A DNA stretch of 52,938 bases from a bacterium (GTDB taxonomy: Bacteria; CG03). Positions within the stretch are counted from its first letter, which is position 1; every line of letters starts with the position of its first letter. The notes beneath the pieces are model-generated. The model searched no databases, was not told where the DNA came from, and saw nothing but the letters and a program-made list of their open reading frames with translations. The stretch covers positions 1 through 52,938 of the forward strand of contig JBDRMV010000012.1 in NCBI GenBank assembly GCA_043811795.1, read 5' to 3'. Below, one piece after another: positions 3-11,040 of this stretch. The position numbers were made by a program, and so were the translations under genes.

Positions 3-101
3 GAAGTCGCAACAATGAAACTCCGGTCAATGGGGATAAAAATAGACAGGCTGACTCCCGAACAGAAGAAATATCTTTCTTCATGGACTGCGGGAACATA
101 A
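3..101 (+). CDS. ahcY: 3' end (last 32 codons) of adenosylhomocysteinase, truncated by the window edge
   Basis: Frame 3 reads [32 protein letters not shown]-stop. This resembles the conserved AhcY C-terminal tail as I recall it. It has no start in the window, so it is absent from the ORF track. Confidence 0.5.
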
Positions 102-637
102 AAAAAATCAAAAATAAAAAAAAGAACATTGCAAAGGCGAAGAAAATAAAGGTCTTTGCAATGGACATTGACGGCGTTCTGACGGACGGACGTATTGTTT
201 TCTGCAAAGGCGAGGAAATAAAATACTGGAACGTAAAAGACCGGATTGCTTTTTTCATATTGAACAGGGCGGGTTATAAAACGGTGTGGATTTCGGGCAG
301 AAAAAGCCGGGAAGTCGAAGAAAGAGCGGGGGATCTCAAAATTAAAGGGGTCTTCCTCGGTGTAAAAAACAAACTTAAAATTTGGAAGCTTGTTTTAAAT
401 AAATTCAAAATAAAGCGTGAAGAAATTTTGTACATAGGCGACGACCTTGTTGATTTGCCTCTTCTGAAAAGCGCGGGCCTTTCCGCTGCCCCTGCCGACG
501 CCGCGGACGATGTCAGAAAAATCTGCGATATCGTAACACGTTCCGCCGCAGGCGAAGGAGTGCTCAGGGAAATCACCGAATTCGTTTTAAAAGCGCAAAA
601 CAAATGGAAAAATGTCTTAAACTATTACGTTTCTTAA
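83..637 (+). CDS. kdsC: 3-deoxy-D-manno-octulosonate 8-phosphate phosphatase (HAD family, KdsC)
   Basis: HAD motif I is [12 protein letters not shown] and motif IV is IGDDLVDL. The size and the position upstream of lptC/lptA/lptB fit KdsC. It has an unusual Lys-rich N-terminal 25 aa. Confidence 0.85.
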
Positions 638-1122
638 CCATCATATTACTCTTCCAGACCTGTTCAAAACAATCATCGGAATTCAGGGTTCTGGAGAAGA
701 TGGACGGTTTTCATATAAAAAAAACTTGCGGCGGCGTGACAAAGTTCGCCCTTCGCGGTGAAAAAATGGTAAGGGGACAAAAAATAGTTGCATCTTATGT
801 AACCGGCTCTTTCTACGATGACGGCGCGGCGAGCGCCGATTTTCAGGCAGACAGAGCCGTTTTTTCCGAAGACGGCAGAGAAATGGAGGCATCCGGCAAC
901 GTTTTTATTCTGGATAAGAAAAATAACGCAAAAATCTACCTTGAAGACATCATGTGGGACAATGCAAAACGCATTTATTTCACGAACAAAAAAGTCAGGC
1001 AGGTTTCATCCGACGGGGAAATTTACGGCACCGGTCTTATGGCGACGGAAGACCTCGGGCGCATCGTAATTGAAAACCCGCGGGTAACCGCAGAAACAAA
1101 AAAAGTGACCAATGAAAAATGA
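604..1122 (+). CDS. lptC: LPS export system protein LptC-like (membrane-anchored)
   Basis: It has an N-terminal hydrophobic anchor, a beta-rich OstA/LptC-like body, and conserved kdsC-lptC-lptA-lptB synteny. Its stop codon lies inside the MITE-like repeat. Confidence 0.7.
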   Translation: MEKCLKLLRFLTIILLFQTCSKQSSEFRVLEKMDGFHIKKTCGGVTKFALRGEKMVRGQKIVASYVTGSFYDDGAASADFQADRAVFSEDGREMEASGNVFILDKKNNAKIYLEDIMWDNAKRIYFTNKKVRQVSSDGEIYGTGLMATEDLGRIVIENPRVTAETKKVTNEK

Positions 1123-1230
1123 CGTTGCCTTCCAGGGACGCTCACGTAAGAATAGTTCGCTCTGGGTTCGCTCCGGGCGAGAGCAAAACTCCTCGCTCAC
1201 ACAGCCCCGTCAGACAACGGTCATTTTTCC
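1114..1230. repeat. MITE-like repeat, copy A (about 117 bp), with terminal inverted repeats GAAAAATGAC(C)GTTG
   Basis: The arms are near-identical to 48868-48999. The left arm is AAATGACGTTGCCTTCCnnGGACGCTCACG. The right arm is GTTCGCTCCGGG...GCAAAACTCCTCGCTCACACAGCCCCGTCAGACAACGGTCATTTT. The two copies are read in different frames, so conservation is at the nucleotide level. Confidence 0.8.
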
Positions 1231-1237
1231 AATTAAA

Positions 1238-1948
1238 GTGCAACTGCACATTAAGATTTTTTGTTTTCTTACCGCTATTCATTCTTTCTGTCCCTTTTTA
1301 CAGGCCGATTCGCTCCAGATAGAAGCGGAAAAAATGATTTATCTGAAACAGGGGGATATTGTTGAATTCAAAAAAAGTGTCAAATTTTCAAAAGAGGGTT
1401 TTAATGGAATTTCCGAAACCCTTCTTCTCGATAAAAAAAAGCGGGTCCTTTCCGCATCCGGCAATGTCTATATAATTCTGAAAAGCACAACAACGGCGCA
1501 AATGTTGAAATTGTGGACAAAAGAAATCCTATATAACGAAAAAAGCGATAAGATATCTTCATCCACGCCGGCTAAGTTTCTGGTTTTTACGTCCACCCGC
1601 CAGAGGTCGGATACCGCGGCCGGAGCCGAAGACAATCTCGCTGCGAGGACCGCTACTCCGGGGGTCTATGAAATCACCTGTGATTCATTTTACGGTTTCG
1701 CGGCAGGGCGGAGGTTTTACTTATCGGGAAAACCTGTTATAATAAACGGGGAAGGCCGTGAAGGCAAGGCGGATTTTGCTGATTTTTCAAATGATGTCAT
1801 AATGATGAAGGAAAATGCATCAATGGAATATAAAGGGGAAAGTCCTTATTTTATCAACGCAGGACTCATCAGAATTGATACTGCCAGCGGAAAAATTAAT
1901 TTCAAAGAAGACGTGGAAGGAACTTTTTATAATTCAAACCCGCAATGA
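1238..1948 (+). CDS. lptA: LPS transport periplasmic protein LptA (OstA-like); start uncertain
   Basis: The body is OstA-like (ADSLQIEAEKMIYLKQGDIV...SASGNVYI) and the stop overlaps the lptB start. A GTG at 1238 gives a signal-peptide-like N-terminus (IKIFCFLTAIHSFCPFLQA/D). The ATG at 1112 would translate the repeat, and the ATG at 1334 would remove the signal peptide. Confidence 0.7.
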   Translation: MQLHIKIFCFLTAIHSFCPFLQADSLQIEAEKMIYLKQGDIVEFKKSVKFSKEGFNGISETLLLDKKKRVLSASGNVYIILKSTTTAQMLKLWTKEILYNEKSDKISSSTPAKFLVFTSTRQRSDTAAGAEDNLAARTATPGVYEITCDSFYGFAAGRRFYLSGKPVIINGEGREGKADFADFSNDVIMMKENASMEYKGESPYFINAGLIRIDTASGKINFKEDVEGTFYNSNPQ

Positions 1949-2685
1949 ATAATGAAACCCGCCCGGAAAAAGAGAATAACCTCTCTTTGAGAGTTTCCGG
2001 CCTGGTAAAGGACTACGGTAAAAAAAGAGCCGTCAACGGCGTTGACATTGAAGTAAAAAGGGGCGATATTGTGGGGCTTCTGGGACCCAACGGCGCCGGT
2101 AAGACGACAATTTTCTATTCGGTAATGGGCATCATTGCCCCAACGTCCGGGAAAATTTTTCTGGGAGATGCTGACATCTCCGGAATGCCGGTTTACAGGC
2201 GGGCGCGCGAAGGCATCGGTTATCTCGCGCAGGAGCCGTCGATTTTCAGAGGTCTCTCCGCACGTGAAAATCTTTCCGCCGTCGCGCAGTTCACGGGCGC
2301 TGATAAAAATGAGCGGACCGACGAAATAATGGAGGAGATGGGAATTTCACACTGCGCCGGAACAAAGGCGTCAAACCTCTCCGGCGGAGAAAAAAGAAGA
2401 GTGGAAATTTCAAGAATTCTTCTTGCAAACCCCTCTTTTCTTTTGCTCGACGAGCCCTTTGTGGGAATCGACCCGATTGCCGTTTCGGAACTCAAACGCA
2501 TCGTAATCGGTTTTAAGAAAAGAAATATAGGAGTCCTTATTACCGACCACAATGTGCGGGAGACCCTCAAAATAATAGACAGCGCTTATATCATTCACAA
2601 GGGCCGGATACTCATCCACGGCACAAGTTCCCAGCTCCTGAATTCCGCCGAGGCGCGCAAAATTTATTTAGGCGAGGACTTTTAG
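1945..2685 (+). CDS. lptB: LPS export ABC transporter ATP-binding protein LptB
   Basis: It has Walker A GPNGAGKTT, ABC signature LSGGEKRRVEISR and Walker B LLLDEP. The synteny also fits. Confidence 0.93.
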   Translation: MNNETRPEKENNLSLRVSGLVKDYGKKRAVNGVDIEVKRGDIVGLLGPNGAGKTTIFYSVMGIIAPTSGKIFLGDADISGMPVYRRAREGIGYLAQEPSIFRGLSARENLSAVAQFTGADKNERTDEIMEEMGISHCAGTKASNLSGGEKRRVEISRILLANPSFLLLDEPFVGIDPIAVSELKRIVIGFKKRNIGVLITDHNVRETLKIIDSAYIIHKGRILIHGTSSQLLNSAEARKIYLGEDF

Positions 2686-2721
2686 AGACGCTTTCGATTA
2701 AATATAATAGGGAGGTTTGTA

Positions 2722-3231
2722 ATGAAAATTGTTGCTAAAAACTTCAGCTTGACGGAGCCGCTGAAAGAATATGCCCTGAAGAAACTGGGTTATTTCCAGC
2801 AGCGTTTCGGCATTTCAAACATCACGGTTACCCTGTCACAGGAGAAAAAAAATTCCACGGCGCAGTTTCTGGGAACATTTTCAAAAACCAACGCTCTCGT
2901 GAAAGTGAAAGCGTCGGACAATACCATGTATGCGGTTATCGACAAGGTTTATTCCATCTGCAAGGTAAAATTGAGCCGCACGAAGAACCAAACTTTGCAA
3001 AATACCCATGCTCTGCGGAAGAAAAGAAAAGGCATCAGGGCTTTTGAGGAACCCGCGGAAACGATGAGAAGTGTCCCGGTTACTCTTATGAGCCGGGAGC
3101 TCGCGCTTGAAAAAATGCTGCGCAGCAAATATCATTTCTGGCTTTATACCGACAAAGACACGGGGCTTTTTACAGTGCTGTACAAAAGCGGGGACGGGCA
3201 GATCTGCGTAATTCATCCCGTCTTCGAATAA
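2722..3231 (+). CDS. hpf: Ribosome hibernation promoting factor (long HPF / sigma-54 modulation protein family)
   Basis: SD GGGAGG lies upstream. It has a YfiA/HPF-like N-domain plus a C-terminal dimerisation-type domain, and sits between lptB and ptsN as in many proteobacteria. Confidence 0.88.
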   Translation: MKIVAKNFSLTEPLKEYALKKLGYFQQRFGISNITVTLSQEKKNSTAQFLGTFSKTNALVKVKASDNTMYAVIDKVYSICKVKLSRTKNQTLQNTHALRKKRKGIRAFEEPAETMRSVPVTLMSRELALEKMLRSKYHFWLYTDKDTGLFTVLYKSGDGQICVIHPVFE

Positions 3232-3233
3232 CC

Positions 3234-3689
3234 ATGCTAAATTACATATCTTCGCCTTTAATAAGCGTCCGGACAAAAGCAAAATCCAAGAAACGGGTCA
3301 TTGAAGAACTCCTCGGCCTTTTTGTCAAAACCAAAGACATCGGAAAAAAATATGCAAACGATGTCTGCAAGGCGGTCCTCAAGCGGGAAACTCTGGGGTC
3401 GACGGGAATCGGCAACGGCATTGCCCTGCCCCACGTAAGACATAAAAAAATAAAAAAAATAAAGATGGCTTTTGCAAATTCGGTTGACGGCATAGAATTC
3501 AATTCTCTGGACGCAGAACCGGTTCACATTGTTTTTCTCCTTATAGGTCCGGAGAAATCGGGACGGGAATACACACAAGTTCTTTCGGAGCTCGCCCAAT
3601 ATTTAAATGACCCTTATTTCAGGAGGGACTTGCTTGCCGCCGAAGCAAAAAAGGATGTGCTTGCCGCAATCAGGAAGAAAGACGAATGA
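3234..3689 (+). CDS. ptsN: PTS EIIA-Ntr type protein (PtsN)
   Basis: It has the EIIA(Fru/Ntr) active-site region GIGNGIALPHVR. The size and the synteny after hpf fit. Confidence 0.87.
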   Translation: MLNYISSPLISVRTKAKSKKRVIEELLGLFVKTKDIGKKYANDVCKAVLKRETLGSTGIGNGIALPHVRHKKIKKIKMAFANSVDGIEFNSLDAEPVHIVFLLIGPEKSGREYTQVLSELAQYLNDPYFRRDLLAAEAKKDVLAAIRKKDE

Positions 3690-4108
3690 CAAAAATAATT
3701 ATTGCCGCCCACGGAAACATTGCCGAACATCTTTTGAATGCGGTAAAAAACCTGACAGGTGAAATAGAAAATATACAGGCAATAAACTTCCGGACGCACC
3801 AGTCGCTGGACGACCTGAAAAATTCCCTTGATACAGCCGTTCTCGTTCGACCCGGCGAAGATGTTTTTATCTTAACCGATTTTCTCGGCGGGTCGCCGTG
3901 CAACTGCGCCTGCCGGCTGCTGCCCGGAAAAAACATGTGGGTCGTCTCGGGCGTGAACCTTCCGATGCTCCTTGAACTGATAACGAAAAGAGACAAAATT
4001 CCGCCGGCACAGTTGTGCTCTGAAATTATAAAGGCAGGCCGGGAATCGATTGTAGATGTAAAAGCGAAATTTGTCTCGCGAATAAACACAAAAAGGGCAG
4101 AGCAATGA
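3686..4108 (+). CDS. PTS mannose/sorbose-family EIIA component
   Basis: The N-terminal KIIIAAHGNIAEHL carries a phospho-His like ManX IIA. It overlaps ptsN in an ATGA junction. Confidence 0.85.
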   Translation: MTKIIIAAHGNIAEHLLNAVKNLTGEIENIQAINFRTHQSLDDLKNSLDTAVLVRPGEDVFILTDFLGGSPCNCACRLLPGKNMWVVSGVNLPMLLELITKRDKIPPAQLCSEIIKAGRESIVDVKAKFVSRINTKRAEQ

Positions 4109-4611
4109 TTAAATTATTCCGCGTCGATTCGCGGCTTATTCACGGGCAGATTGTTGAGGGATGGCTTAAGGCATATCCCATAGACGAAATCCTGGTAATA
4201 GACGACGATATTTATAACAGCGAATTTGAAACCAGGGTTATGAGGTTTTCCGTTCCTCAGGAAGTATCATTCGAGGTCTTAACAATCGGCATGGCCTCCG
4301 AAAGATGGAGAACATTTGAGGCCTCCGCCAAAAAAATCCTCGTCATAGTGCAGTCAATAGAAATCCTGAAGAAACTCTTTGATACAGGCGTTAATTTACC
4401 CGGGATAAATATGGGCCTCGTCAATTACACCGACTCAAAAACCGCCCTTACGAAGTCGGTGTATATTGATGAAACGGAAAAAGATATCCTCTTATACCTT
4501 TTGGAAAAGGGCGTTAAAATATTTATCCAGACATTGCCTTCGGATGAAAAAATTCCACTTGAAAAAGTCATGGTTGGGGACGGTCGAAGAGACCCGTCCC
4601 CTTCCACATAA
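4105..4611 (+). CDS. PTS mannose/sorbose-family EIIB component
   Basis: It has the N-terminal RVDSRLIHGQIV motif (EIIB-Man catalytic His). It overlaps the preceding gene in an ATGA junction. Confidence 0.85.
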   Translation: MIKLFRVDSRLIHGQIVEGWLKAYPIDEILVIDDDIYNSEFETRVMRFSVPQEVSFEVLTIGMASERWRTFEASAKKILVIVQSIEILKKLFDTGVNLPGINMGLVNYTDSKTALTKSVYIDETEKDILLYLLEKGVKIFIQTLPSDEKIPLEKVMVGDGRRDPSPST

Positions 4612-4612
4612 A

Positions 4613-6685
4613 ATGAACGGAATGTATTTTGCTTTCGGGGTGCACGGTCATCAGCCGATCGGTAATCATCCGAGGATATTTGAAGAATGTTACAGAACTT
4701 CATACGCGCCTTTTTTTAAAGTACTCGAGAACTTCCCCGAACTTTTGATTAACGTCCATCTGAGCGGGTCCCTGCTTGAGTGGCTCCTGAAAAACAAACC
4801 CGAGTTTATCGGCTCCCTTCAAGCGATGATAGACAGAGGACAAATTGAAATTTTGGGCGGACCTCTTTATGAACCGGTATTGCCGCTCATACCCGAACCG
4901 GATATAACGGAACAGATTTTGCTCTTTACAAAATTTCTCGCCGAGAAAATGGGCGTTCACCCCCGCGGGATGTGGCTTCCGGAGAGGGTCTGGGAATCGT
5001 ATCTTGCAAAACCCATTGCAATGGCGGGAATCGAATATACGCTGGTGGACAACTGTCATTTTAACGGAGCGGGATGGATGGACGATAAACTGCACGGCTA
5101 TTTTATCACGGAGCATGAGGGTTTTAAGTTAAAAATGTTCCCGATACTTGAGTCCCTGAGATACAAAATGCCGTATTCCGCTCCGGCGAAAGTCATCGAA
5201 TATATAAAAAAAATAGGCGAGGAAGCCGGCGGCGGTGTGAGAATAATGATAGATGATATCGAAAAATTCGGCGCATGGCCCGGGTCATACAAGCACACTT
5301 ATGAAGACAAATGGCTTGAGAATTTTTTTACCCTTCTCAAAAAAGAACAGAAAGCAGGAAACATTTCTACGATAAAACTTTCCGATTACACGGATAAATT
5401 CCCCTCCGACGGCAACATCTATCTGCCCGCACGCTCGTATTCTAAAATGGGGATGTGGGCGCTCCCCTGCGATTCCGGAAATACTTTCCGGCCCATTTAC
5501 GAAAAAATAAAGGAAACCGCCGAGACAGAGAAAAAACCATGGATGAATTTTATATGCGGAGGGATTTTCCAGAATATGCTCATCAAATACCCCGAAAGCA
5601 ATCTTATGCATAAAAAAATGCTCAAACTCTCGCGGGAAATAATTAACCTCCGTGAAAGCGAGAACTTCCCCGCAATGCAGCGGCATCTTTTCAGAGGCCA
5701 GTGCAACTGCGCTTACTGGCACGGAATTTTCGGCGGAATTTACATGGGGCACCTGAGAGCCGCTGTTTTCCACGAACTTCTTGAATGCGAAAAACTGCTT
5801 TACGGAACCTCCGGTAAAAAAATGCTGCTGGCGGAGGACGATTCCGTCTTTTACGGCCAGAACGAAATAGACGTCTGCACTGAAAATTTTTCCGCGCACA
5901 TCCACCCTGACATAGGAGCAAACGTTTCGGAACTCTCCGAATTCAAGACCTGTCACAACCTCGGTTTCGTCATGAAACGCCGCAAGGAGGTGTATCACAC
6001 TTCAAATATATTAAATGATAAAATAGTTGAACCCGCAAACAAGTCAGTCAAAATTAAAGACGCACAGAAGCTTACTTACGACTGGTACGACAGATTTTCG
6101 TTCATTTTCCATTTTTTCCACCCGGAAACCCGCCTCGAGGACTTCGCAAAATGCACATACGGCGAGCAGGGTGACTTCGTCAATCAACCCTTCAAATACA
6201 CGATAGACCGTGATGCCGGAAAAATAATCTGCGAAAGAACAGGCCACGTATGGGAAGCGGATAACTTTGTAAACATAACCGTAACAAAGACATTTGAATT
6301 CTTCGGCAACAGTGAAATAAAATTTCTCTGGAAAATTACGAACAATTCTCCGAAAAAAATAAATTTACTCCCCGGCATAGAACTGAATTTAAGCCCGTCC
6401 TCGCAAAATTCCGCAACATTCTCGGTCGGCGCCGAAACCGTCCCCTGCACGAAATTGTTTCAGGGTAGCGGCGACTCCGTGGTTCTTGAGGACAAAATAT
6501 ACAACCTGACCATGAAAATTTTATGCTCAAAAAAAACAAAAATATGGCTTTATCCCGTTGAAACCGTCTGCCTGATAGACACCGGTTTTGAATCCCTTTT
6601 CCAGGGCGTTTCCCTTACATTCCTGAACCGTGTTGAAATCGAACCCGGCCGGGCAGACACGGGGACGATAAGGATTATGGTTTAA
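4613..6685 (+). CDS. Glycoside hydrolase family 57 enzyme (4-alpha-glucanotransferase / amylopullulanase-like), cytoplasmic
   Basis: All five GH57 signature regions are visible: HGHQP, GQIEILGG, WLPERVWE (nucleophile Glu), DDIEKFG (acid/base Asp) and CNCAYWHG. The start was chosen at the ATG 1 nt after the EIIB stop. The longer ORF from 4466 overlaps EIIB. Confidence 0.88.
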   Translation: MNGMYFAFGVHGHQPIGNHPRIFEECYRTSYAPFFKVLENFPELLINVHLSGSLLEWLLKNKPEFIGSLQAMIDRGQIEILGGPLYEPVLPLIPEPDITEQILLFTKFLAEKMGVHPRGMWLPERVWESYLAKPIAMAGIEYTLVDNCHFNGAGWMDDKLHGYFITEHEGFKLKMFPILESLRYKMPYSAPAKVIEYIKKIGEEAGGGVRIMIDDIEKFGAWPGSYKHTYEDKWLENFFTLLKKEQKAGNISTIKLSDYTDKFPSDGNIYLPARSYSKMGMWALPCDSGNTFRPIYEKIKETAETEKKPWMNFICGGIFQNMLIKYPESNLMHKKMLKLSREIINLRESENFPAMQRHLFRGQCNCAYWHGIFGGIYMGHLRAAVFHELLECEKLLYGTSGKKMLLAEDDSVFYGQNEIDVCTENFSAHIHPDIGANVSELSEFKTCHNLGFVMKRRKEVYHTSNILNDKIVEPANKSVKIKDAQKLTYDWYDRFSFIFHFFHPETRLEDFAKCTYGEQGDFVNQPFKYTIDRDAGKIICERTGHVWEADNFVNITVTKTFEFFGNSEIKFLWKITNNSPKKINLLPGIELNLSPSSQNSATFSVGAETVPCTKLFQGSGDSVVLEDKIYNLTMKILCSKKTKIWLYPVETVCLIDTGFESLFQGVSLTFLNRVEIEPGRADTGTIRIMV

Positions 6686-7311
6686 TGCTGAATATCGCTC
6701 TCGCTTCACTGATGACCGGCGTTTTATCCTGCGATACGGTCACCGCAGGTCAGTTTATGCTCTCAAGGCCCATTATAATGGGCCCTGTAATAGGTCTCTG
6801 CCTCGGTAATCCTTACGTCGGTTTTATAGCGGGGATTTGCGTTGAATTAATATGGTCGAGCGTAATTCCCATCGGCTCCTCAACCCCGCCGGACATGCCC
6901 ATGACGTCGGCGCTGGCGACCGCATCCGCAATTTTTTCAATTTCAAACTACGGGATAACCGAGTTCCCTGCAATAATTCTGGCTCTGGTCGTTTCGATAC
7001 CGTGCGGGATTCTTTTTCAGAAGGCGAGTTTAAAAATCCGGCTCCGTAATTCGGATATCATCGACAAAATAAAGGCGGATGTTGCAAAAGACAAATACGA
7101 GAGCGTTAATTTCTTTACTCTGTTCGCTATTCTGAGGGTTTTTCTGGTGAGCGCATTCTTTTTTGCGGCATGTTATATTCTTATTACGCAGATACCGCGC
7201 GCCTACTGGATGCTTTTTAGCATTCTGAACGTTGCCCCGTGGGTAATTTTGAGATTTATATATATTCTCTGTTTTGCGCAGTTATTCGAGATGTTCGTAA
7301 AATGGAAATAA
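6685..7311 (+). CDS. PTS mannose-family IIC membrane component (short)
   Basis: It is a polytopic membrane protein whose start overlaps the GH57 stop (TAATG). It sits directly before a IID-like gene. Confidence 0.72.
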   Translation: MLNIALASLMTGVLSCDTVTAGQFMLSRPIIMGPVIGLCLGNPYVGFIAGICVELIWSSVIPIGSSTPPDMPMTSALATASAIFSISNYGITEFPAIILALVVSIPCGILFQKASLKIRLRNSDIIDKIKADVAKDKYESVNFFTLFAILRVFLVSAFFFAACYILITQIPRAYWMLFSILNVAPWVILRFIYILCFAQLFEMFVKWK

Positions 7312-8087
7312 AAACGGAAAGACATTACGAAAAGAAGTTCGGAAAAGTCCTGAGAAAGGTTTTCTTCAGGTCATTTCTGCTGCAGGCGCTCTGGAATTTC
7401 AAAGGAATGCAGAATGCGGGCTTTCTTTACACGATAAAGCCCGTTCTGGATCTTTTATATGAAAACAAAGAAGAAAAAAAAGCCGCCTACCTGAGGCATC
7501 TTGATTTTTTTAACACTCATCCCTACTGCGCCTCTTTTATATTCGGCGTTGTGGCCAGAGAAGAAAAATTGTTTGCGGAAAGCGGAGACAGGCGGCACAT
7601 AGAACGCGCGGTTAACACAAAAAAAATTCTGGGGGGGCCCATTGCCGCCTTCGGCGACTCAATGATATGGGGAATCGCCAGACCCTTTACCGCCCTTATC
7701 GGGACAGCCCTGATTCTGCTTTTCTCCAAGAATGTAAATCTTATGTGGCTCGGCCCGGCGGCGGCTTTCGTTATTTTCAATGTTTTCCACCTCATTATAA
7801 GATACCGCGGCATTTTCATCGGCTTTGAAGACGGTGAAAAAATTTTTGATAAAATTTTAGCCGGATACATCCACAAGTGGGCGGGTTATTTGAGAACGAC
7901 AGCGATTGTTCTGATTTCACTTCTGCTTGTAAGGGGCTTTATGTCCGAAACAGGGACCATGGCGCTTAAAATGGCGTATCCCGTTTCGTTTGTTTTGCTG
8001 GTTCTTTTTCTCAACAGAATTTCTGCGACGCTTCTTTTTTATATTGTTGTCGTGGCGGGAGGAATCTTTGCAGGGTGCTGTCACTAA
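7302..8087 (+). CDS. PTS mannose-family IID membrane component
   Basis: It has the IID-type N-terminus FFRSFLLQALWNFKGMQNAGFLYTIKP. The ATG at 7302 overlaps the IIC stop (ATGGAAATAA). Confidence 0.8.
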   Translation: MEIKTERHYEKKFGKVLRKVFFRSFLLQALWNFKGMQNAGFLYTIKPVLDLLYENKEEKKAAYLRHLDFFNTHPYCASFIFGVVAREEKLFAESGDRRHIERAVNTKKILGGPIAAFGDSMIWGIARPFTALIGTALILLFSKNVNLMWLGPAAAFVIFNVFHLIIRYRGIFIGFEDGEKIFDKILAGYIHKWAGYLRTTAIVLISLLLVRGFMSETGTMALKMAYPVSFVLLVLFLNRISATLLFYIVVVAGGIFAGCCH

Positions 8088-8340
8088 AAAATATAAAATA
8101 ATGCTTGCCTCCGGTATCCACGTGAGAACCGCCCTCACAATTGCCAAACTCGTCGGCAGATTCAAGAGTAAGGTCTTTATAAAAAAGGGAGAGAATGAGG
8201 CGGGGACGGATTCTTCCCTCGGAATTCTTGCCCTGGGAATAGAAGAAGGCGATGAAATCGAAATCAGAATCGAAGGCCCCGACGGCGCGGATCTTGCGGA
8301 AGCCTTCGATAAATTGGTAAATGATAATTTTGGAGAATAG
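8068..8340 (+). CDS. ptsH: Phosphocarrier protein HPr (TTG start)
   Basis: TKKYKIMLASGIHVRTA aligns with the B. subtilis HPr segment QKTFKVTADSGIHARPA. The ATG at 8101 would delete strand 1. GGGAGG at 8057-8062 lies 5 nt before the TTG at 8068. Confidence 0.85.
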   Translation: MQGAVTKKYKIMLASGIHVRTALTIAKLVGRFKSKVFIKKGENEAGTDSSLGILALGIEEGDEIEIRIEGPDGADLAEAFDKLVNDNFGE

Positions 8341-8375
8341 CCGCAAAGCAGTCATCGCGGCAAATAGGAGTAAAT

Positions 8376-10061
8376 ATGATTTTTAGGGGTATTCCTGTTT
8401 CTCCGGGCATAGCCGTAGGAAAAGTTTTTGTTCTTGAAAAAGAAATTCAGAATGTTTATAGAAGAAACATTCTCGCTAACGCGGTAAAAAACGAAATCGC
8501 GCGTTTCAGAAAAGCGGTTTCGCAAACACGAAATGATATTATGGACGTCGAGAAAAAAATCCGGAAAGAACTTGGGCGGCGGAAAAGCCAGATTTTTGAG
8601 GGCTACCGGCTTTTCCTGGAAGACAGAATTCTCATAGAAGACACGGAGGAAATTATCCGGAAACAGAAAGTCAACGCCGAATTCGCATTCTCAATACAGT
8701 TGAAAAAAATTATTTCGGAATTTCAGAACATAAAAAATGCTTATCTGAAGGAAAGAACGCGGGACATATCCGAGCTGGGTAACAAAATTATGGCTCATCT
8801 TTTGCAGAGAGACGAAAAGTTCTCATGGTCGCAAATTCCCGAAAATTCGGTAATCGTCGCTCACAACATTACCCCGGCGGACACCACAAACATGAAGGGC
8901 AATTCGGTGATTGCCTTTGTAACCGATATCGGCGGGAAGACATCCCACACGGCAATTATGGCGAGAGCCCTTGAAATACCCGCCGTCACCGGGCTGAAAA
9001 ACTTTTCGCAGAACATTGAGGGTATGCAGGACATCATCGTTGACGGGGTAAGCGGAATCGTGATAACCGAGCCCGACGAGGAAACGCTCATAAATTACAA
9101 AAGAGAACGAAAAAAATATCATGAGGAACAATACTCCCTGCAGTATCTCATAGAAAAACCGACCGTTACCCGTGATGGAAAAACCCTGACTCTCACGGCG
9201 AACATAGAAATACCGGAGGAAATCCCAACGGTTCTTGCTCACGGCGCCGAAGGAATCGGCCTTTACAGAAGCGAGTACATTTTTATGAATTCTCCGGAGG
9301 TGCCGAAGGAGGCAGAGCAGTATCAAATATACAAAACAATCTGTGAAAAAATGCTTCCCTACCCCGTCATAGTAAGAACTTTCGATATAGGAGCGGATAA
9401 ACTTTCCGATTCAATAGAACTCCCCGATGAACCTAATCCGATAATGGGTCTGAGAGCAATCCGGCTTTACTTTAAAATCCCCGAGGTTTTCAAGACACAG
9501 CTGAGGGCTTTGATGAGGGCATCTTCGGCGGGGAATTTGAAAATAATGATTCCGATGATAACCTCCGTTTCCGAAGTGAAAAAAGTAAAGACGATTCTTG
9601 AAGAAGTGAAGCGCGAACTTGAAAACGAAGGCGTCCCGTTTAACAAAAAAACACCCCTCGGGGCGCTGATTGAAGTTCCTTCCGCCGCTCTCACCGCCGA
9701 CTTAATAGCGGAGGAAGTTGACTTTTTAAGCATCGGGACAAACGACCTTATCCAGTACACTCTTGCCGCCGACAGGTCAAACGAAAACGTCGGCTATATT
9801 TATGAGCCGATGGACCTCTCCATCCTGCGGCTCATTGATTATGTCGTAAAGGCATCCCACCGGGCGGGCAAGCAAGTTTCAATGTGCGGGGAAATGGCTT
9901 CGGACCCCGCTTACACCAAACTGCTTGTGGGAATGGACTTTGATGAGTTGAGTATGTCTTCAATTTCAATCCCCAAAATAAAGCAGATAATACGAACGAC
10001 AGATTACAAGGAAGCAAAAAAATTTGCAAGGGATTTTATAAAAAACCCTCTGGATATATGA
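8376..10061 (+). CDS. ptsI: Phosphoenolpyruvate-protein phosphotransferase (Enzyme I)
   Basis: It has the phospho-His region GGKTSHTAIMARALEIPAV and PEP-utilising C-domain motifs (GTNDLIQY, CGEMA). SD AGGAG lies upstream. Confidence 0.95.
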   Translation: MIFRGIPVSPGIAVGKVFVLEKEIQNVYRRNILANAVKNEIARFRKAVSQTRNDIMDVEKKIRKELGRRKSQIFEGYRLFLEDRILIEDTEEIIRKQKVNAEFAFSIQLKKIISEFQNIKNAYLKERTRDISELGNKIMAHLLQRDEKFSWSQIPENSVIVAHNITPADTTNMKGNSVIAFVTDIGGKTSHTAIMARALEIPAVTGLKNFSQNIEGMQDIIVDGVSGIVITEPDEETLINYKRERKKYHEEQYSLQYLIEKPTVTRDGKTLTLTANIEIPEEIPTVLAHGAEGIGLYRSEYIFMNSPEVPKEAEQYQIYKTICEKMLPYPVIVRTFDIGADKLSDSIELPDEPNPIMGLRAIRLYFKIPEVFKTQLRALMRASSAGNLKIMIPMITSVSEVKKVKTILEEVKRELENEGVPFNKKTPLGALIEVPSAALTADLIAEEVDFLSIGTNDLIQYTLAADRSNENVGYIYEPMDLSILRLIDYVVKASHRAGKQVSMCGEMASDPAYTKLLVGMDFDELSMSSISIPKIKQIIRTTDYKEAKKFARDFIKNPLDI

Positions 10062-10062
10062 T

Positions 10063-11040
10063 ATGAGCGACAAAGAAAAAATTTCTCTTATTTCAAAAAC
10101 GTTCAACGCGTTAAAGAGCGAACTTTCAAAAGCCGTCATCGGGCAGGACGCGGTCATAGAACAGCTGTTGATTTCTCTTTTTGCGAAGGGGCATGCCATC
10201 ATCGTGGGCGTGCCGGGCCTCGCTAAAACGCTGCTCGTGGCAACTCTCGCCCGGATTCTTGACCTGAAATTCTCAAGAATACAGTTCACCCCCGACCTGA
10301 TGCCATCGGACATAATAGGAACGGATATAATAGAAGAGGACTTAAAATCGGGACGCAAAAATTTCAGGTTCATAAAAGGCCCTGTTTTTGCCAACATAAT
10401 TCTGGCTGACGAGATAAACAGAACGCCCCCGAAAACGCAGTCCGCCCTTCTTGAAGCAATGCAGGAATATAAAGTGACCGCGGGCGGGAACGACTATGTT
10501 CTTGAACAGCCGTTTTTTGTGCTCGGAACGCAGAATCCCATCGAACAGGAAGGGACGTACCCTCTGCCCGAAGCGCAGCTCGACAGGTTTTTCTTTCAGA
10601 TAAACATTTTTTATCCCAGCGAAGAAGAAGAAAAGAAAATTGCTCTCACGACCACGGCATTCCCCGATTACGACCTGAAAACGATTCTTACGAAAAAAGA
10701 AATTCTCGGGATACAGGATTTCGTAAGGAAAATACCCGTTCCCGACAATTCGCTTGAATACGCCGTAAAACTCGTAAAAATGACGCGCCTGCCGGACGGC
10801 GACCCCGATATCATAAAATGGATTTCGTGGGGCGCAGGGCCCAGGGCTTCGCAGGCGCTCGTTCTGGCTGCAAAAATAAAAGCGGCCCTGGACGGAAGAT
10901 TTTCCGTTTCAAAAGAAGACATAAGAGACATTGTCTTCCCCGCCCTCAGACACCGCCTGGTCATAAATTTCAGCGCCGAAGCGGAGGGAATCACTGCGGA
11001 CGATATAATACGGAAAATGCTGGAGAAAAATTTAAAATAA
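10063..11040 (+). CDS. MoxR-family AAA+ ATPase
   Basis: It has Walker A GVPGLAKT, Walker B ILADEINR and typical MoxR length. No vWA/DUF58 partner follows. Confidence 0.9.
   Translation: MSDKEKISLISKTFNALKSELSKAVIGQDAVIEQLLISLFAKGHAIIVGVPGLAKTLLVATLARILDLKFSRIQFTPDLMPSDIIGTDIIEEDLKSGRKNFRFIKGPVFANIILADEINRTPPKTQSALLEAMQEYKVTAGGNDYVLEQPFFVLGTQNPIEQEGTYPLPEAQLDRFFFQINIFYPSEEEEKKIALTTTAFPDYDLKTILTKKEILGIQDFVRKIPVPDNSLEYAVKLVKMTRLPDGDPDIIKWISWGAGPRASQALVLAAKIKAALDGRFSVSKEDIRDIVFPALRHRLVINFSAEAEGITADDIIRKMLEKNLK

Follow-up and report, generated by a model that had tools for sequence, protein, structure and literature searches.

We found that the 52,938-nucleotide (nt) contig JBDRMV010000012.1, hereafter the window, carries a gene for a predicted cytoplasmic alpha-glucan enzyme of family GH57 embedded in a mannose-class phosphoenolpyruvate (PEP)-dependent phosphotransferase system (PTS) operon, between EIIB(Man) and the membrane subunit IIC(Man). 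The host is an Elusimicrobiota-type metagenome-assembled genome (MAG) of 1.74 Mb and 92.5% completeness. The EIIB-GH57-IIC order recurs in about 25 genomes and, judged from gene order, the partner that GH57 keeps across phyla is the phosphorelay and not the permease. Since the phosphorelay is the common denominator, we favor a reading, at about an even chance, in which the embedded, translationally coupled GH57 ties alpha-glucan remodelling to the state of the PTS phosphorelay.

Bases 83-11040 of the window form a single co-directional, densely packed gene run on the forward strand, which also holds all features of the window described below. It reads KdsC-like, lptC, a 278-residue open reading frame (ORF) at the lptA position, lptB, hpf, a ptsN-like EIIA, EIIA(Man), EIIB(Man), GH57, IIC(Man), IID(Man), HPr, Enzyme I and a MoxR ATPase; every listed gene of the PTS block scored above its Pfam gathering score. 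The start of EIIA(Man) at 3686 and that of EIIB(Man) at 4105 both lie in ATGA stop/start overlaps with the preceding gene (ptsN-like EIIA and EIIA(Man), respectively). The EIIB stop codon TAA (4609-4611) is followed by one base and then by the GH57 ATG at 4613, the GH57/IIC junction is TAATG at 6683-6687, IIC and IID overlap by ATGGAAATAA at 7302-7311, and the TTG start of HPr at 8068 falls 20 nt inside IID, with a GGAGG 5-6 nt upstream of it. Overlapping or abutting stop and start codons thus run throughout the block, and the pattern is kept in about 25 genomes. A preliminary description of this DNA had listed the junctions and concluded that GH57 belongs to the operon itself and is no mere neighbour; all coordinates hold, and the data support tight coupling of GH57 as an integral part of the operon. 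We placed the GH57 start at 4613 and not at the TTG at 4466 because the orthologues in about 25 loci start at the same residue.

We infer that GH57 is co-transcribed with the flanking PTS genes. Consensus scans found no forward-strand terminator at the junctions and no promoter there that would isolate GH57, an outcome that the preliminary description had named as counting against its reading, and promoter-like sites in the region were not enriched (15 found versus 11.0 +/- 4.1 expected). The best sigma-70-like site, TTTAGA-16-TATAAT at 2681..2708 (10/12 consensus positions), falls in the 36-nt gap between lptB and hpf and is a candidate operon promoter, being a consensus match only. A hairpin in the last EIIB codons (4571..4606, -23.7 kcal/mol, z -2.67) ends 7 nt upstream of the GH57 ATG. 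It was considered as a terminator or attenuator isolating GH57 and rejected, as it lacks a U-tract and is a single occurrence in the window. Nor is it conserved in a genome of the same genus, where the 3' arm carries uncompensated differences close to a 9-nt indel; the hairpin is probably incidental. A recent insertion of GH57 was likewise rejected, given that G+C content is flat over the PTS block, that the arrangement is kept at 25-60% identity, and that the ratio of nonsynonymous to synonymous substitution rates (dN/dS) against the same-genus genome lies at 0.17-0.23 in each of the six genes between ptsN and IID inclusive, which indicates purifying selection.

The GH57 gene (4613..6685, dN/dS 0.23) encodes 690 residues of the 4-alpha-glucanotransferase or 'AmyA' type. 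The protein matches the catalytic domain PF03065 with 155.8 bits (gathering cut-off 21.2), the helical middle domain PF09094 with 110 bits and the C-terminal beta-sandwich PF09095 with 151 bits. It aligns with the Thermococcus litoralis 4-alpha-glucanotransferase (TLGT; 1K1W) over residues 4-677 (E 2.6e-125). An alignment beginning at residue 4 leaves no room for a signal peptide, and the protein opens directly on the first catalytic-domain strand, which argues for a cytoplasmic location. All five conserved GH57 regions were found (HGHQP, GQIEIL, WLPERVW, IDDIEKFG and GQCNCAYWHG), so that the five signatures and missing signal peptide noted earlier were both confirmed. By alignment, the nucleophile E124 corresponds to TLGT E123 and the acid/base D215 to TLGT D214; both residues are invariant in 14 aligned relatives and kept in 103/105 tblastn matches, and the earlier expectation of conserved catalytic residues is borne out. 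The sequence therefore suggests an ordinary cytoplasmic 4-alpha-glucanotransferase type with an intact active site, for which the reaction itself is predicted by homology. The enzyme shares with that of T. litoralis (PDB 1K1W, 1K1X, 1K1Y) the three-domain build PF03065/PF09094/PF09095, the catalytic Glu and Asp in matching motifs and the lack of a signal peptide. It differs in that its gene lies inside a PTS operon and in that the window's family also has GH77 MalQ, so that the work may be divided otherwise. A special PTS-linked GH57 subfamily was considered and dropped, since only three weakly discriminating alignment columns were found, none of them His or Ser. Bacterial homologues are named by NCBI as 'alpha-amylase/4-alpha-glucanotransferase domain-containing protein' or 'DUF1926 domain-containing protein'.

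The surrounding genes indicate a mannose-class PTS (TC 4.A.6) by their domains, phospho-histidines and both membrane subunits. EIIA(Man) (3686..4108; PF03610 79.5 bits; dN/dS 0.22) has a phosphorylatable His9, kept in every orthologue whose alignment reaches that position, and EIIB(Man) (4105..4611; PF03830 138 bits; dN/dS 0.17) has a phosphorylatable His13, present in 22/22 orthologues. HPr (8068..8340; PF00381 67.5 bits) starts with TTG and carries His18 and Ser49, the latter equivalent to Ser46; both are kept in all orthologues examined. IIC(Man) (6685..7311; PF03609 76 bits; dN/dS 0.20) is a short form of 208 residues, and IID(Man) (7302..8087; PF03613 138 bits; dN/dS 0.18) has 261. An AlphaFold model of IIC from 11 orthologues (mean predicted local confidence, pLDDT, 77.8) matches, at probability 1.0 and along its whole length (about 210 columns), the IIC chains 6k1h_B and 7xtg_D of Man-PTS structures, suggesting the same fold. 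IID aligns with Escherichia coli ManZ (6k1h_Z) over residues 7-194 (E 1e-29). The components are nevertheless very divergent, with NCBIfam scores far under the cut-offs (IIC 55 versus 300 bits, IID 127 versus 365 bits), and no match reached the curated cut-off of a substrate-defined NCBIfam equivalog (mannose, sorbose, N-acetylgalactosamine (GalNAc) or galactosamine (GalN)), all lying far below. Compared with E. coli ManXYZ and the Listeria/Lactococcus Man-PTS (PDB 6K1H, 7VLX, 8HFS), the system has the same functions IIA, IIB, IIC and IID, the IIA and IIB histidines and, in the IIC model, the ManY fold. In contrast, its IIC is about 55 residues shorter, its IIA and IIB are separate proteins and its components are highly divergent. 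It is the sole PTS in the window's MAG.

The arrangement extends well beyond this MAG. We surveyed the 80 best GH57 loci among 185,579 species genomes; the GTDB phylum of the window's genome comprises only 26 species genomes, and the closest named relative bears the NCBI label 'Elusimicrobia bacterium HGW-Elusimicrobia-2'. The window's family carries the order EIIA-EIIB-GH57-IIC-IID-HPr in 10/10 genomes, with protein identities of 44-61% once the window's own genus is set aside, and two further families of the phylum have it as well (L016 and L024; such L numbers are our locus labels). Among the 80 best loci, the same order also occurs in other classes of the phylum, in several other Elusimicrobiota clades, in a Firestonebacteria MAG, in a Krumholzibacteriota MAG and in one MAG labelled Clostridia. 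Pfam labels revealed the same arrangement on a 99-kb Logan contig and in the complete genome of the cultured Endomicrobium proavitum Rsa215 (CP009498.1, 93260-111332), public since 2015. Over the about 25 genomes, the projected distances between the EIIB stop and the GH57 start, and between the GH57 stop and the IIC start, range from -13 to +37 nt, the majority being overlaps of 4 or 8 nt. The preliminary description had named confinement to one genome as a sign of recent insertion; conservation across phyla rules this out. No paper on the linkage came up in literature searches that paired GH57 or glucanotransferase with PTS or HPr kinase, in line with the earlier remark that no described PTS operon with an internal GH57 was known.

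In three genomes of the same phylum the corresponding site is empty: the order is hprK-(rapZ)-EIIA-EIIB-IIC-IID-HPr-EI, and IIB and IIC are about 24 nt apart. In these, GH57 lies elsewhere or is absent. The GH57 tree follows taxonomy, and PTS linkage maps onto it as 8 changes, at least 3 of which are forced by well-supported branches.

Several variants place GH57 next to relay genes without an adjacent permease. In NC10/Methylomirabilis the order is lptB-rpoN-hpf-hprK-rapZ-EIIA(Man)-GH57-HPr, and genes for IIB, IIC and IID are lacking there. An Elusimicrobia MAG (L041) has rapZ-DUF4912-GH57 branching enzyme-EIIA-GH57-HPr-EI, and a genome from a different phylum (L118) shows hprK-GH57-HPr-EI. 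The order is hprK-GH57 in a Sumerlaeia MAG and hprK-EIIA-EIIB-MlaD-GH57 in a Zixibacteria MAG (L045). At locus L037, both GH57 enzymes, the glucanotransferase type and the branching enzyme, sit between IIB and IIC. The window's genome has an adjacent pair of DUF4912 and GH57 branching-enzyme genes away from the PTS (C130:2420-4824, minus strand), whereas L041 has this pair within its PTS cluster. DUF4912 may therefore belong to a GH57 glycogen toolkit. In the Zixibacteria locus, the MlaD-domain gene (5487-6383) separates EIIB and GH57, and tblastn found no IIC or IID downstream, which would leave this EIIB with no permease in sight.

The genes on either side of the PTS block place it in a known context. 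A 'rpoN gene cluster' with a regulatory PTS, in the order lptB-rpoN-hpf-ptsN-hprK-rapZ-IIA(Man)-HPr-EI-R, has been proposed as ancestral for Proteobacteria, and Desulfovibrio vulgaris keeps mannose-class IIB/IIC/IID in its rpoN cluster (Comas et al. 2008, PMC2405797). The window shares kdsC, lptC, lptA, lptB, hpf, ptsN, IIA(Man), HPr and a GAF-less EI in the same order, and its relatives carry hprK, rapZ and a CofD/YvcK-like gene at the expected spots. One point of the preliminary description has to be revised: the block is no free-standing sugar-uptake operon but the tail of the lptB-(rpoN)-hpf-ptsN 'rpoN-cluster' PTS (PMC2405797), and the embedded glycogen enzyme is the new element. The differences are the embedded GH57, joined in some relatives by a GH57 branching enzyme and DUF4912, and the loss of rpoN, hprK and rapZ in the window's lineage. 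These three genes are absent from the window, with no rpoN between lptB and hpf, and tblastn did not find hprK, rapZ or yvcK in the window's genome. At the ptsN/EIIA spot, relatives have rapZ alone (L035, L115), hprK-rapZ (L121) or hprK-rapZ-cofD (L039, E. proavitum). Because all three genes missing from the window occur in relatives, we read the window as a reduced derivative of the cluster. Sigma-54 is absent from Elusimicrobium minutum (PMC3162934), which fits the missing rpoN. The literature consulted on the cluster described neither the embedded GH57 glucan enzyme nor an embedded GH57 branching enzyme with DUF4912.

The distribution of HprK within the 26-genome phylum ran counter to that of the embedded gene. 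HprK is missing in 12/12 genomes with a PTS-embedded GH57 (families f1, f2 and f4 in our numbering) and present in 13/14 genomes without such an embedded GH57; the one that departs from this is only 66% complete. This exclusion may reflect one or two evolutionary events, and it fails in Endomicrobiales, which have both. The window's HPr keeps its Ser46-equivalent residue despite the absent HprK.

With coupling of alpha-glucan remodelling to the phosphorelay state as the favored reading, the embedded GH57 would make the remodelling of intracellular alpha-glucan, either glycogen or maltodextrin, depend on sugar supply and on the PEP/pyruvate balance. The minimum mechanism would be the obligatory co-expression of GH57 with the PTS genes. 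Beyond this, GH57 might be directly bound or phosphorylated by HPr, EIIA or EIIB, by analogy with E. coli, in which HPr binds and His-phosphorylates glycogen phosphorylase (PMC13324651). Likewise, Rhizobium leguminosarum without EIIA(Man)/ManX accumulates glycogen (PMC13689476). These two cases, E. coli HPr/phosphorylase and R. leguminosarum ManX (glycogen, polyhydroxybutyrate (PHB) and exopolysaccharide (EPS)), resemble the one proposed here in that the PTS relay governs storage-glucan metabolism. They differ in that the link there is post-translational and the genes are unlinked, whereas the link proposed here is read from gene order only; their targets are a GT35 phosphorylase or tricarboxylic acid (TCA) cycle enzymes and not GH57. 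A third comparison is the permease-less PTS of Brucella melitensis (EI-Ntr, NPr, EIIA-Ntr, EIIA-Man and HprK; PMC2937029), which has the same soluble components and resembles the NC10, L041, L118 and Sumerlaeia variants that link GH57 to relay proteins only. It has no linked glucan enzyme, whereas the window keeps IIB/IIC/IID under purifying selection. The actual reaction of GH57 and any control by protein-protein contact are conjectural.

The preliminary description had offered two readings, control of glycogen turnover by the PTS phosphorylation state and PTS-coupled uptake feeding an alpha-glucan pathway. The first fits the comparative data better than the second, because GH57 is linked to HprK, EIIA and HPr where no adjacent IIB/IIC/IID exists. 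The second would make the operon a metabolic module: GH57 would free glucose from malto-oligosaccharides, glycogen-derived or external, and EII(Man) would convert it to glucose-6-phosphate, much as MalQ plus glucokinase do, or PTS-imported hexose would enter glucan synthesis. The glucose would be phosphorylated either on the cytoplasmic face or once it had leaked out and been recaptured. Such a module would account for the position of GH57 exactly between the soluble IIA/IIB and the membrane IIC/IID with overlapping codons, in the window and about 25 genomes, and this is the sole PTS of the window's genome. The Endomicrobiaceae mannose-type PTS has been treated as glucose uptake able to replace glucokinase, with GH57 unmentioned (PMC11257099), and the window's own assembly, which is 92.5% complete, yielded neither a glucokinase nor a ROK gene. 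However, 8/10 genomes of the family, the same-genus genome included, carry a ROK kinase, and the window's lack of one is therefore probably an assembly gap. The argument that PTS must phosphorylate glucose for want of a glucokinase was thereby weakened, the weak N-terminal PF02685 matches being ROK kinases. We also rejected GH57 as a replacement for MalQ, since families f1 and f2 have a GH77 MalQ of their own. The window's family and genome further hold GlgA, GlgP and the separate DUF4912 and GH57 branching-enzyme pair. With canonical MalQ and a ROK kinase in the family, there is no missing step for GH57 to fill, the PTS has an alternative as a source of glucose-6-phosphate, and the idea of an equivalent to MalQ plus glucokinase is weakened. 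The variants lacking adjacent IIB/IIC/IID (NC10, L041, L118, Sumerlaeia) also speak against a module, as does the co-embedded branching enzyme (L037, L041), which releases no glucose. We therefore regard a metabolic module as unlikely.

Hitch-hiking would require no functional tie: a housekeeping glycogen gene would sit in a constitutive, packed operon of a small genome and be kept there since excision is hard. The surrounding genome is indeed compact with many overlapping genes, the embedded GH57 is each phylum's ordinary orthologue with no PTS-specific signature, and many lineages lack the link or have lost it. Such chance retention would nevertheless have to explain why GH57 lies beside relay genes at at least four positions in different phyla (IIB|IIC, EIIA|HPr, hprK|HPr and after hprK), when PTS genes, by a rough and uncalculated estimate, account for well below 1% of these genomes, and why the junctions still overlap at 25-40% protein identity. 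On balance, we consider hitch-hiking improbable. In Firmicutes, PTS operons commonly include glycosidase genes, and the position between IIB and IIC would equally suit a hydrolase for a PTS-delivered sugar phosphate, for example a phospho-alpha-glucoside, like the GH4/GH13 phospho-glucosidases. Yet known mannose-class permeases carry monosaccharides, and the enzyme is orthologous over its full length to a glucanotransferase acting on unphosphorylated alpha-1,4-glucans, with its five GH57 regions unchanged. It is also of the same sequence type as GH57 in genomes without a nearby PTS, and the linkage persists without adjacent permease genes and with a co-embedded branching enzyme. Such a hydrolase activity is thus very improbable.

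Coupling of glucan remodelling to the phosphorelay state has several observations to contend with. GH57 had no PTS neighbor at 63/80 best loci and, within the window's phylum, families f5-f8 hold GH57 elsewhere and f3 and f9 are without it; the PTS link is therefore facultative. The deep nodes of the GH57 tree are weak, and some of the cross-phylum sharing could reflect whole-operon transfer and not independent recruitment. In addition, the PTS-linked GH57 proteins have no distinguishing residues in common and no conserved extra His or Ser, so a dedicated phospho-acceptor site is not indicated. All of these weigh against the coupling we propose.

The linkage in many uncultured phyla and in E. 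proavitum nonetheless points to an undescribed tie between the relay and storage-glucan turnover. A bolder version, which we put forward tentatively and think doubtful, is that GH57, in some lineages together with the branching enzyme, is a direct client of the phosphorelay through binding by HPr, EIIA(Man) or EIIB(Man), His-phosphorylation or docking to EII. If so, many diderm phyla other than Proteobacteria would share storage-glucan turnover as a conserved and hitherto unrecognised output of the rpoN-cluster PTS. This PTS occurs widely in diderms, and little is understood of its outputs beyond a few Proteobacteria; the embedding of a glycogen enzyme in it across phyla is a gene-order clue that storage-glucan turnover may be among them, and agrees with the findings on E. 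coli HPr and R. leguminosarum EIIA(Man). The embedded GH57 also has a consequence for metabolic models of Elusimicrobiota, which now read the PTS simply as a glucose importer. The question of coupling is testable, as E. proavitum Rsa215 is cultured and the proteins are small and, save IIC and IID, soluble.

The remaining genes of the run complete the picture of the cluster. The unassigned 278-residue ORF at the lptA position (1112-1948) had no Pfam or NCBIfam match. The ABC ATPase gene lptB (1945..2685; PF00005) marks the left boundary of the rpoN-type cluster; in relatives, the lptB that precedes the same PTS block shares 51-70% identity with it. It is followed by hpf (2722..3231; PF02482, PF16321), for a ribosome hibernation/sigma-54 modulation protein, and by the ptsN-like EIIA of the fructose/Ntr class (3234..3689), which matches PF00359 with 110 bits and TIGR01419 with 83.9 bits, the latter under its cut-off. 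Enzyme I (8376..10061; PF05524, PF00391, PF02896) lacks a GAF domain and is thus of the 'EI-R' type. Elsewhere in the window's genome, we observed a second PtsN-like EIIA(2) domain (C157:6669-7094; 32% identity) and a distant EI paralogue (C65:1318-2673; 28% identity), which is probably a PEP-utilising enzyme.

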